Shown: positions 2,631 to 57,681 of the stretch, in pieces
Position numbering within the stretch: the first letter of the stretch is position 1
How the letters are laid out: each line of letters begins with the position of its first letter
Assembly: GCA_918797485.1 (NCBI GenBank)
Contig: CAKKNE010000003.1
Coordinates: 2,046,001 to 2,110,000 of the forward strand
Direction of reading: 5' to 3'
DNA from: Pelagomonas calceolata
Lineage: Eukaryota
DNA length: 64,000 nucleotides
The notes under the pieces: generated by a model
Told to the model about the DNA's origin: nothing
The model's input: only the letters and a program-made list of their open reading frames with translations
Databases searched by the model: none
Made by a program: the position numbers and the translations under genes

Positions 2631-2648
2631 CTAGCAGTAAGACACTAG
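2631..2648 (+). promoter_or_regulatory. CTAG-box motif, shortened copy (CTAGCAGTAAGACACTAG)
   Basis: About 290 bp upstream of pgl. Regulatory role inferred. Confidence 0.5.
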
Positions 2649-2727
2649 GGGCGCGACGCCATCGACGCGACACGACAATGAAAAAATCGGTCGAATGTTT
2701 TTACTACAAAACGAAAGCGGCGGCAAG

Positions 2728-4248
2728 TCAGCACCGCTCCAGGAACGCGCACGTCGAGAGCGCGTCCTTCGCCGTGAGCCGCCGGTCGGGGTCGATGGTC
2801 AGCAGTCCCTCCAGCAATTTGTGCAGGTCGCGGTCGGGCTCGCAGTACTGGCGGAGGGGCGGCATGCGCCGCACGTGGTCCCGACCGTCGCGCGGCAGGG
2901 CCTGCTCCCACGTGCTACGAGCGTCCGAGTCGAAGTATTTCGTGGCATATCTACTCCGCTGGACCAGCGCCCGCGGGAACGGTCCCACGGCCCTCTCAAT
3001 CAACGCTAAATGCTCCGTATTGGAATGCGTCGCGAAGAGCAGCTCACCCTTGCCCAATTCGGCCACGATACAACCAGCAGACCACAGATCAGAGGGAGTG
3101 GACCAGCCCAAGTTCAGGATGACCTCCGGTGCCCGGTACTGCCGCGTATTCACGATCGAACTTTTACGTTCGTCGTCATACGTCGCCCCGCCGAAGTCGA
3201 TGACGACGATGTCGGCCTCGTCCCGACCGAGCTGGCACCGCCCGTCACTATCCGGTTGTGGTTTCTTCACCCCCAATTTACGAAGTAGGACGTTCTCGAG
3301 CTTGAGATCCGTATGCACGAGCTTCATCGCATGGAGAAACCGCAGCGCTTCCAAGAGCTGTCGTGATATCCGTCTGACAGTATCTCTAGCGAAGGGTCGG
3401 TAGCTATTGCCCTTGAGGTAGTCATACAGAGACGTCCCGGCGCGTTCGAAGGCCAGGCAGTAATGTCCGCGGAACTCGAAAGTTTCAAACAACTGGACGC
3501 ACAACCTCCCGCCCTCCTCGCCGTTCGCCCTGGCTGTCGCGTTCACGTCCCGCAGGATCTCGGCTTCCACCGCGGCACTCTCCGTGTAGCGCTCTATACG
3601 TCTCACAACTTTCAGAGCTACTCGCCGTCGATCCGGATGCCTGAGGTCGACACAGTCCACAACTCGTCCAAACGTCCCCAAACCGGCCTCGCCGACGATC
3701 TCGTAGCGCCCGTCGATCGTGTCGCCCGCCTTCCCCTCATAATGACCCTGGCTGTCGTCGCGGTTGTCGCCGTCGTCGTCCTCCTCGCGCCGTCGTCGTC
3801 GCCCTTCCTCGCCGACTCTACGTCTTTTCCGCGGCCTGTCGTCGGCGTCGCGCTCGCGCCGCCTCCGGTCGGCGTCCTCGCGGCGGCGCTCGGGCGGCCG
3901 CCGCCGCGGGTCCGGCTCGCGGCGCGGGCGGTCGCGGCGGTCGCGCTCCGGCCGCCGCGGTCGGTCCTCTCTCCGAGAATCGTCGCGGCGGCTGCGGCTC
4001 TTGTCGCCGCGCCTCGAGTCCTCGCGCCGCGACCGGCTCTTGTCGTCGCGGCGGCTCCGCGACTTGTCCTGTCGCCGGCTGTCGTCGCGCCTCGACCTGC
4101 TGTGGTCGATCCTACGGCTGTCTTCTCGCCTTGATCGTGATTTATCGTCGCGGCGGCTGCGGCTTAGGTCCTGCCGCCCGCGCCTCTCCCGGCTTGCCTG
4201 AGGCCGCCCCCTATCGCCGTCGCGCCGTCTTTCGTAGCCGCGCTGCAT
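2728..4248 (-). CDS. CLK/LAMMER-family dual-specificity kinase with RS/RD-rich N-terminus
   Basis: GLGTFGRV, HTDLKLENVLL, IDFGGA, TRQYRAPEVIL and EHLALIER (LAMMER-like). N-terminal SR-rich repeats. Confidence 0.9.
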   Translation of the reverse strand: MQRGYERRRDGDRGRPQASRERRGRQDLSRSRRDDKSRSRREDSRRIDHSRSRRDDSRRQDKSRSRRDDKSRSRREDSRRGDKSRSRRDDSRREDRPRRPERDRRDRPRREPDPRRRPPERRREDADRRRRERDADDRPRKRRRVGEEGRRRRREEDDDGDNRDDSQGHYEGKAGDTIDGRYEIVGEAGLGTFGRVVDCVDLRHPDRRRVALKVVRRIERYTESAAVEAEILRDVNATARANGEEGGRLCVQLFETFEFRGHYCLAFERAGTSLYDYLKGNSYRPFARDTVRRISRQLLEALRFLHAMKLVHTDLKLENVLLRKLGVKKPQPDSDGRCQLGRDEADIVVIDFGGATYDDERKSSIVNTRQYRAPEVILNLGWSTPSDLWSAGCIVAELGKGELLFATHSNTEHLALIERAVGPFPRALVQRSRYATKYFDSDARSTWEQALPRDGRDHVRRMPPLRQYCEPDRDLHKLLEGLLTIDPDRRLTAKDALSTCAFLERC

Positions 4249-4517
4249 TTATTCGATGCAAACGCGTGCCGCGTGCTGTTGCTGCTAGTTATGAGGCCAT
4301 TTAGGCGACGCTATATAGCCTCGACTTTGACATGCGTAGGCGCCCGCGCCCTGTCCTTTGGACCTCCTAGCTATGTACGTACCTACAGCAACACGACTCA
4401 AAACAGCGGTCCGACTCGTCGTCGGGCTGCGCGACGGCGACGGGCGAAAGGGACGCGTCGACCCGAACTTCAAATTCGCGGGCCAGCTTCAACTCAAAAG
4501 ACTACACACCATCACCG

Positions 4518-57340: not shown

Positions 57341-57431
57341 GTTGTTGGCGGCCCTCGTAAAAGAAGTACTAGTTAAAAACCTGCTCCCTCGCCGTCGTCG
57401 CCTCCGAGCTAACCCTCGCGGCGACGGCGTA

Positions 57432-57653
57432 TGAGGCTCAGGCTCAGGCTAGTTACGTCGCGGGGTTCCCCGTACCCCTCCCGCTCCCCCGGCCCTCCCC
57501 TCCTAATTGTTTCGGTGCTCCCGTGAGGCTCAGGCTCAGGCTAGTTACGTCGCAGGGTCCCCCCTACCCCTCCCGCGTGAGGCTGAGGCTGAGGCTAGTT
57601 ACGTCGCAGGGTTCCCCGTACCCCTCCCGCTCCCCCCGGGCCCACCCGTCCGG
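57432..57653 (+). repeat. Three tandem copies of a non-coding unit (TGAGGCTCAGGCTCAGGCTAGTTACGTCGCAGGGTTCCCCGTACCCCTCCCGC)
   Basis: Copies start at 57432, 57524 and 57578. A fourth, inverted copy is at 21166-21240. Confidence 0.9.
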
Positions 57654-57660
57654 TGAGCGG

Positions 57661-57681
57661 CTAGTATCTTACAAACGCTAG
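57661..57681 (-). promoter_or_regulatory. CTAG-box motif, divergent copy (CTAGCGTTTGTAAGATACTAG)
   Basis: About 250 bp upstream of the G-patch gene. Confidence 0.5.

Follow-up and report, generated by a model that had tools for sequence, protein, structure and literature searches.

A recurrent 22-bp CTAG dyad in promoter regions of Pelagomonas calceolata: a predicted site for a lineage-restricted general promoter factor

The locus and its CTAG boxes

We analysed a 64-kb stretch of Pelagomonas calceolata DNA (hereafter the window), which is eukaryotic, gene-dense and 65% GC. Counts given below refer to it and to further loci retrieved for comparison. Annotation from open reading frames (ORFs) and Pfam matches gave 27 gene starts, which delimit 19 promoter-bearing and 8 convergent intergenic regions. 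Distributed among these regions are copies of a 22-bp dyad that we term the CTAG box, and the sequence was confirmed at all 12 coordinates proposed in an earlier, sequence-only reading of the window. That reading had recognised a single variant, at 28930, which is indeed 21 bp long; the copies at 2631 (18 bp) and 57661 (21 bp) also deviate, and the 12 copies comprise nine of 22 bp and three length variants (18, 21 and 21 bp).

2631..2648, plus strand: 18-bp variant; on its left, 5' ends of 6-phosphogluconolactonase (6PGL) at 28 and 35 bp; on its right, a kinase 3' end at 42 bp
7006..7027, plus strand: 22-bp box; divergent RRM/HAT and Rab genes on either side
8371..8392, plus strand: 22-bp box with T as first base; upstream of a WWE-domain gene
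16579..16600, minus strand: most diverged 22-bp box; flanked by divergent AMP-binding and GT2 genes
21016..21037, plus strand: 22-bp box; aldo-keto reductase/PhyH ATG 76 bp downstream
25377..25398, plus strand: 22-bp box; divergent FAD/NAD oxidoreductase and PITH genes; orthologous copies in loci L001 and L006
26867..26888, plus strand: 22-bp box; divergent DIM1 and EF-hand genes; orthologous copy in L001
28930..28950, minus strand: 21-bp variant, nearly palindromic; 22 bp from the COX6B 5' end, with AAAACCCG immediately on its left
29669..29690, plus strand: 22-bp box; precedes a gene whose start is at 30016 and follows the COX6B 3' end by 44 bp
53827..53848, plus strand: 22-bp box; KH-domain gene on one side, divergent gene starting at 54017 on the other
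55407..55428, minus strand: 22-bp box with T as first base; upstream of a CobW gene
57661..57681, minus strand: 21-bp variant; upstream of a G-patch gene
24011..24029, plus strand: possible decayed 19-bp copy (a CTAG pair with an 11-bp gap), alike by eye and excluded from all counts

Other features of the window are recorded here for orientation. Two introner-like copies, at 27710-27846 and ~54394-54522, share terminal inverted repeats; the first is a spliced intron (42 and 37 reads) flanked by an 8-bp duplication, is absent from the related locus L001, and is covered by many reads from other loci. An intron-internal word, CGATGGCGT, has 12 copies in the window and also occurs just past gene 3' ends (1512, 2656 and 28823-28826). 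A broken fragment of a DUF285 repeat lies in the intergenic stretch 23800-24000. A 2560-codon frame (30942-38624) has weak MBD, AP2, Tudor and zinc-finger matches and may encode a chromatin reader, with no shown link to the box, while a 3182-codon frame (38690-48238) has no Pfam match.

Motif statistics and anatomy of the box

The CTAG box is a real motif: eight sites lie within three mismatches of the consensus, compared with none in each of 100 dinucleotide shuffles. A position weight matrix (PWM) built from the nine 22-mers scores these at 30.6-40.7 bits and the next site in the window at 10.5, and a gapped profile, trained on the same 12 sequences that it recovers, finds 12/12 copies, the weakest at 10.7 bits versus 7.5 in the reversed window. 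Neither tool reveals a clear additional copy in the window, and the gapped profile does not pick up 24011..24029. The bare pattern CTAG-N14-CTAG, with one mismatch allowed, is not enriched there (17 versus 11.65 expected). Beyond the window, DNA run X6 has nine contigs (summed depth 177/218) with a different base immediately following the 25377 box. Single-copy pieces there have a depth of 3-7, so the result fits many more copies elsewhere in the genome. The run is likely of the same strain, and the listed pieces of the window show no alternative letters in it. If the density in the 64-kb window holds, extrapolation gives ~190 boxes per Mb and thousands of copies in all.

The ends of the box are sharp. 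Across ten independent 22-mers, identity between copies is 0.89 within the core and 0.30 and 0.35 in the adjacent 10 bp. Within the core, 15 of the 22 columns are invariant in nine copies, and changes cluster in the other 7 (P=0.003 against uniform decay). The alternating dyad symmetry noticed earlier holds over nine window copies and three from relatives' loci: in 10-12 of these 12 copies the bases at pairs 1-4, 6, 8 and 10 complement each other, whereas those at pairs 5, 7, 9 and 11 do so in none. Positions that do not pair are nonetheless as invariant as those that do, and pair 5/18 is asymmetric in 14/15 copies (P=0.0005). The suggestion of a dimeric factor is weakened by this result, because two interchangeable half-sites account for fixed non-palindromic positions less well than does a reader that is itself asymmetric, or shared ancestry of the copies.

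The box also holds more information than its location requires, 32 bits versus the ~13 needed to locate 12 sites in the window. The information in a binding site is expected to match the amount needed for location, according to the information theory of such sites (PMC2680408 and 10.1101/2024.11.11.623117), and plain common descent would account for the surplus. Together, the fixed asymmetry and the excess information suggest that the box spread by copying. Of the 16 copies known, four are not 22 bp long (18, 21, 21 and 23 bp), which would be awkward for a rigid reader.

An alternative, akin to the micro-transposon footprint raised in the earlier reading, is that the box is a largely inert relic. 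It would have been left by a mobile micro-element that seeks promoters, or by recombination, as an 18-bp unit together with a CTAG target duplicate that entered open chromatin. The fixed asymmetry, the surplus information and the sharp ends all agree with such a relic, as do the CTAG at both ends, the occurrence in both orientations, the restriction to one lineage, and the activity of small repeats (introner-like introns) in this genome. The confinement of changes to 7 of the 22 columns does not, and given the positional and comparative evidence set out below we consider an inert relic unlikely.

The dyad might instead act by folding, as a cruciform or hairpin in DNA or RNA, or be a small RNA. 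The 28930 variant does fold well (z -3.2), but four of five folded copies do no better than shuffles, and the invariance of the non-pairing positions is not what pairing would demand. The window yields no Rfam match at the gathering threshold and no tRNA hit. RNA reads at 25399 are few, and since every one of them has a different base there, other loci are their likely source. We regard a structural role as highly improbable.

One box per promoter region

All 12 boxes are intergenic, with the nearest ATG 76-381 bp downstream (starts inferred from ORFs and Pfam), in close agreement with the ~75-380 bp first reported, and five sit between divergent gene pairs, as had also been claimed. Exactly one box is found in each of 12 of the 19 promoter-bearing intergenic regions (~60%) and two in none, a pattern with P=0.016 under length-weighted random placement; an inert relic would not be expected to avoid a second insertion in this way. 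The genes concerned belong to unrelated families. The further claim that no copy lies between convergent genes is true (0/8), but these gaps total 923 bp and the absence is not significant (P=0.27). In the five divergent pairs the nearer ATG is always on the CTAGCG side, and over all placements the same orientation is seen in 10/13 (P=0.046, a post hoc comparison).

We also considered whether the box is generally the end of a longer element, and rejected this as a rule: only the copies at 7006 and 26867 share a ~100-bp segment (88% identical, starting at the 7006 box and spanning 26866-26967), and the flanks of the others are near background. The DIM1 promoter of L001 carries the same segment, which looks like a promoter duplication rather than a general longer element. 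A 130-bp segment around the 7006 box (6985-7115) has no plasmid match. Two kinds of sequence adjoin individual boxes: a GC-rich repeat of 45-75 bp, in four copies of which three are in a row, on the CACTAG side of two boxes (21166-21240 and 57432-57653), and short stretches matching transcripts from other loci (8110-8146, 8313-8364 and 21058-21097).

Transcript ends near the box

To place transcript ends we used raw stranded polyA RNA-seq over 24000-31000 (runs X21 and X24) and 1800-21700 (X21), which covers 9 of the 12 boxes. The two runs represent one sample, the ends are polyA read piles and not CAGE tags, and all figures refer to the piles listed. Two of these (15982 and 10192) lie inside ORFs, so that piles are not always start sites. 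The DIM1 5' pile is at 26840 (25/64; second run 26839-26840), 27-28 bp from the box edge. For COX6B it is at 28972 (162/385; second run 92/229), 22 bp from the box, with minor piles at 28965 and 28967; the COX6B 5' UTR contains a 281-bp GT-AG intron (28999-29281) that starts 27 bases after the 5' end. PITH has piles at 25426 (7/12) and 25471, 28 and 73 bp from the box, the latter being larger, and 6PGL at 2603 (6/15) and 2596, 28 and 35 bp away. The Rab gene is the exception, its piles at 7162 and 7166 lying 135 and 139 bp from the box. The nearest 5' pile is thus 22-28 bp from the box edge in 4/5 genes with a listed upstream pile, and these four distances span no more than 6 bp (P ~0.001, for a statistic picked after seeing the data). 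Box-less promoters have no pile among those listed and hence provide no control. The similar distance to 5' ends in these four genes is a further point against an inert relic.

Transcript 3' ends raise another alternative, in which the box is protein-bound but acts mainly as a boundary, a transcript-ending roadblock or insulator, with the adjacent start sites as a side effect. Where tandem genes have a listed 3' pile, which applies to two cases, the box follows closely: the kinase piles are at 2690 and 2693, the former 42 bp from the box edge at 2648, and COX6B ends at 29625, 44 bp before the 29669 box. At three boxes, moreover, the RNA contig does not reach the box but ends 6-15 bp away from it (6996, 25413 and 29696). 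Only two 3' ends are measured, however, and five boxes separate divergent genes, so that no transcript ends at them; the lack of boxes in convergent gaps points the same way, though without significance. A mainly boundary function therefore seems to us improbable, while a boundary role may go together with that of a promoter factor, the two not being exclusive.

Retention and loss in relatives

A metagenome scan with a PITH alignment returned eight loci. Homologs of the PITH protein in named organisms include those of Pelagophyceae sp. CCMP2097 (67%) and of Chrysophaeum taylorii (68%). The closest named match (85%) is labelled Coccolithus braarudii, a haptophyte, and this record is presumably mislabelled or contaminated. 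Two loci, L001 and L006, differ from the window at 92/234 and 98/266 four-fold sites (37-39%) and keep the box at 3/3 orthologous positions. The L001 boxes differ at 2/44 bases, far fewer than the four-fold sites (P=1e-7), but they are not significantly better kept than their own promoter and UTR flanks (2/44 versus 100/903, P=0.12). The orthologous box of L006 has two substitutions and a 1-bp insertion. At none of the three positions is an empty site seen, and copies older than a split with 39% four-fold divergence are yet only 11% different; both observations are hard to reconcile with a mobile relic.

L002 and L003, identical to each other over 4768 bp, are syntenic with the window gene order and more distant (159/321 four-fold differences, 50%). 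Neither carries the full 22-bp box. The check at orthologous promoters is thus borne out in the closer relatives and not in the more distant ones. L002 may nevertheless contain fragments of the dyad, including a right-half-like word at 6583. In its DIM1 promoter one CTAG matches 7/8 of the first bases of the box; with 3/4 further bases matching after the single CTAG, this could be the unfilled target of a mobile element, but it gives no clean empty-site alignment. The remaining loci (L004, L005, L007 and L008) have no box, with few promoters covered.

Gene content differs as well. About 16 kb between the Rab and oxidoreductase genes (7906-24200) is missing in L002 and L006, where these genes are adjacent; it contains WWE, ATP-grasp, AMP-binding, GT2 and two aldo-keto reductase genes, three boxes, and an internal duplication spaced 3.8 kb and 99% identical. 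CGATGGCGT is present in L002 at the position orthologous to 2656.

Viral contigs have no match to a strict pattern and 28 loci with one match each to a loose 15-base pattern, which we read as chance, no second PWM score exceeding 15 bits. Prokaryote genomes contain two matches. One (L038) is in bacterial intergenic DNA and was set aside as chance. The other (L037), used as one extra copy, matches the box exactly. Its contig is filed under a spirochaete genome but looks chimeric, and the GC-rich stretch that holds the box together with a NicO gene (~1870-4100) appears to be eukaryotic.

A different word in the sister lineage

L002 shows another word, AAAACCCG, seen six times versus 0.34 expected and mostly paired. 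In L002/L003 the word is found at the 6PGL, RRM/Rab, oxidoreductase, DIM1 and post-EF-hand promoters, i.e. at 5/5 orthologs of box-bearing promoters (the fifth, in L003, assigned by synteny of the upstream gene only), and is absent from the AAA-ATPase and kinase promoters, which are box-less in the window (0/2; Fisher P=0.048, from one sister lineage). Its placement is similar too. In the oxidoreductase promoter the distance to the ATG is 144-166 bp for the L002 word pair and 143-164 bp for the window box, and in the L002 DIM1 promoter an inverted AAAACCCG pair, preceded by one CTAG, aligns over the box position. The window retains AAAACCCG thinly (5 versus 1.4 expected), which hints that it may be the older word. 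Box and the 7-base core of AAAACCCG are not mutually exclusive in the window, the core being present in 3/12 box regions and 2/7 box-less regions. At 71-72% protein identity, L004 and L005 have neither box nor AAAACCCG; L005 has GTTCAA repeats in two promoters (3250-3310 and ~690-720), perhaps the promoter word of a third lineage.

Taken together, the restriction of the box to one lineage and the different word in a relative's matching promoters, neither of which the earlier reading anticipated, are suggestive. The boldest reading of them is that a pelagophyte lineage swapped the master word in most of its promoters slot for slot, a copied 22-bp cassette, whose reader would be new and possibly transposase-derived, having replaced AAAACCCG at a divergence where gene order has been preserved; we put this forward as a speculation that is rather doubtful as it stands. 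Should wholesale replacement prove true, promoter codes in these algae would turn over through mobile micro-cassettes.

Interpretation

We interpret the CTAG box, which is restricted to a pelagophyte lineage, as quite probably bound by a general promoter factor that recognises its sequence, a prediction made from sequence and transcript positions. The original interpretation is supported in part, namely as to a promoter cis-element, by the 5' ends, the one-per-promoter spacing and the retention at orthologs. We envision that a sequence-specific protein, either one with a long footprint or a heterodimer, would read the box asymmetrically and keep the short gap between transcripts open, i.e. accessible in chromatin. 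Transcription starts would be set by it at ~22-28 bp beyond the edge of the box, and transcripts arriving from upstream may be stopped as well. The copies themselves would descend from one ancestral sequence and occupy positions at which the sister lineage has AAAACCCG words.

The literature that we searched, which mostly lies outside subscription journals, describes no promoter motif for this algal group and no such box, in keeping with the initial impression that the motif is undescribed. The right 12-mer of the box has no match in literature text, and one other 12-mer each occurs in five unrelated papers; the words 'motif' and 'promoter' are absent from the main texts of PMC9481584 and 10.1101/2024.10.30.620910. 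A 22-bp word in ~60% of promoter regions could serve as pull-down bait, as a marker of gene starts and as a part for expression constructs. The box also makes the replacement of a general promoter factor traceable base by base, since syntenic relatives with and without it exist in ocean metagenomes.

Comparison with known systems

Several classes of mobile and promoter element resemble the box in part. Helitron 3' ends carry a terminal CTAG followed by T, with a strong hairpin before it; the base after the last CTAG of the box is never T (12/12) and four of five copies lack a hairpin, so that the box does not have these Helitron features. The right end of the box may resemble CACTA termini. 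Core promoter elements of the TATA type keep a fixed distance to the start site and depend on orientation; the near edge of the box lies 22-28 bp upstream of 5' ends in 4/5 genes, and the post hoc orientation bias (10/13, P=0.046) bears on the same reading. Unlike these elements, the box is a GC-balanced 22-bp dyad that serves either side, is kept only in close relatives, and in one gene lies 135 bp away.

MITEs and pelagophyte introners (PMC9481584) share with the box many near-identical, lineage-restricted short copies. The introner-like copies in the window, however, are 127-137 bp long, have their own terminal repeats and lie in genes, whereas the box is 22 bp, occurs in promoters only and, by inspection, shares no terminus with them. 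Of the terminal inverted repeats of a MITE the box has only an imperfect dyad, in which pairs 5, 7, 9 and 11 never pair. The box also departs from an ordinary MITE in that no variable target-site duplication is apparent, by inspection, outside it; the two CTAG could be a fixed-target duplication.

The DRE/DREF system and human ZBED1, a domesticated hAT-type protein, likewise involve a dyad near ubiquitously needed genes, and offer a precedent for a transposon-derived general factor on housekeeping promoters (PMC7471704). The DRE is a perfect 8-bp palindrome, TATCGATA (same source), and the box is asymmetric and unlike it. The box was rejected as a DRE on this difference in sequence.

Motifs of yeast general regulatory factors (GRFs) are ~6-14 bp long, and by length the 22-bp box fails as a site of this type. 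It is also set apart by its presence in ~60% of promoter regions at 22-28 bp from 5' ends. According to PMC2897762, GRF sites (Reb1, Abf1 and Cbf1) are, like the box, frequent in promoters of unrelated genes, a given set of promoters can rely on another word from one lineage to the next (the Cbf1-to-Reb1 'mediated replacement'), and the sites scored were 7-mers, compared with 22 bp and ~32 bits here. We therefore file the box in none of the known classes; in the way it appears to work, it is most like the yeast GRF sites.
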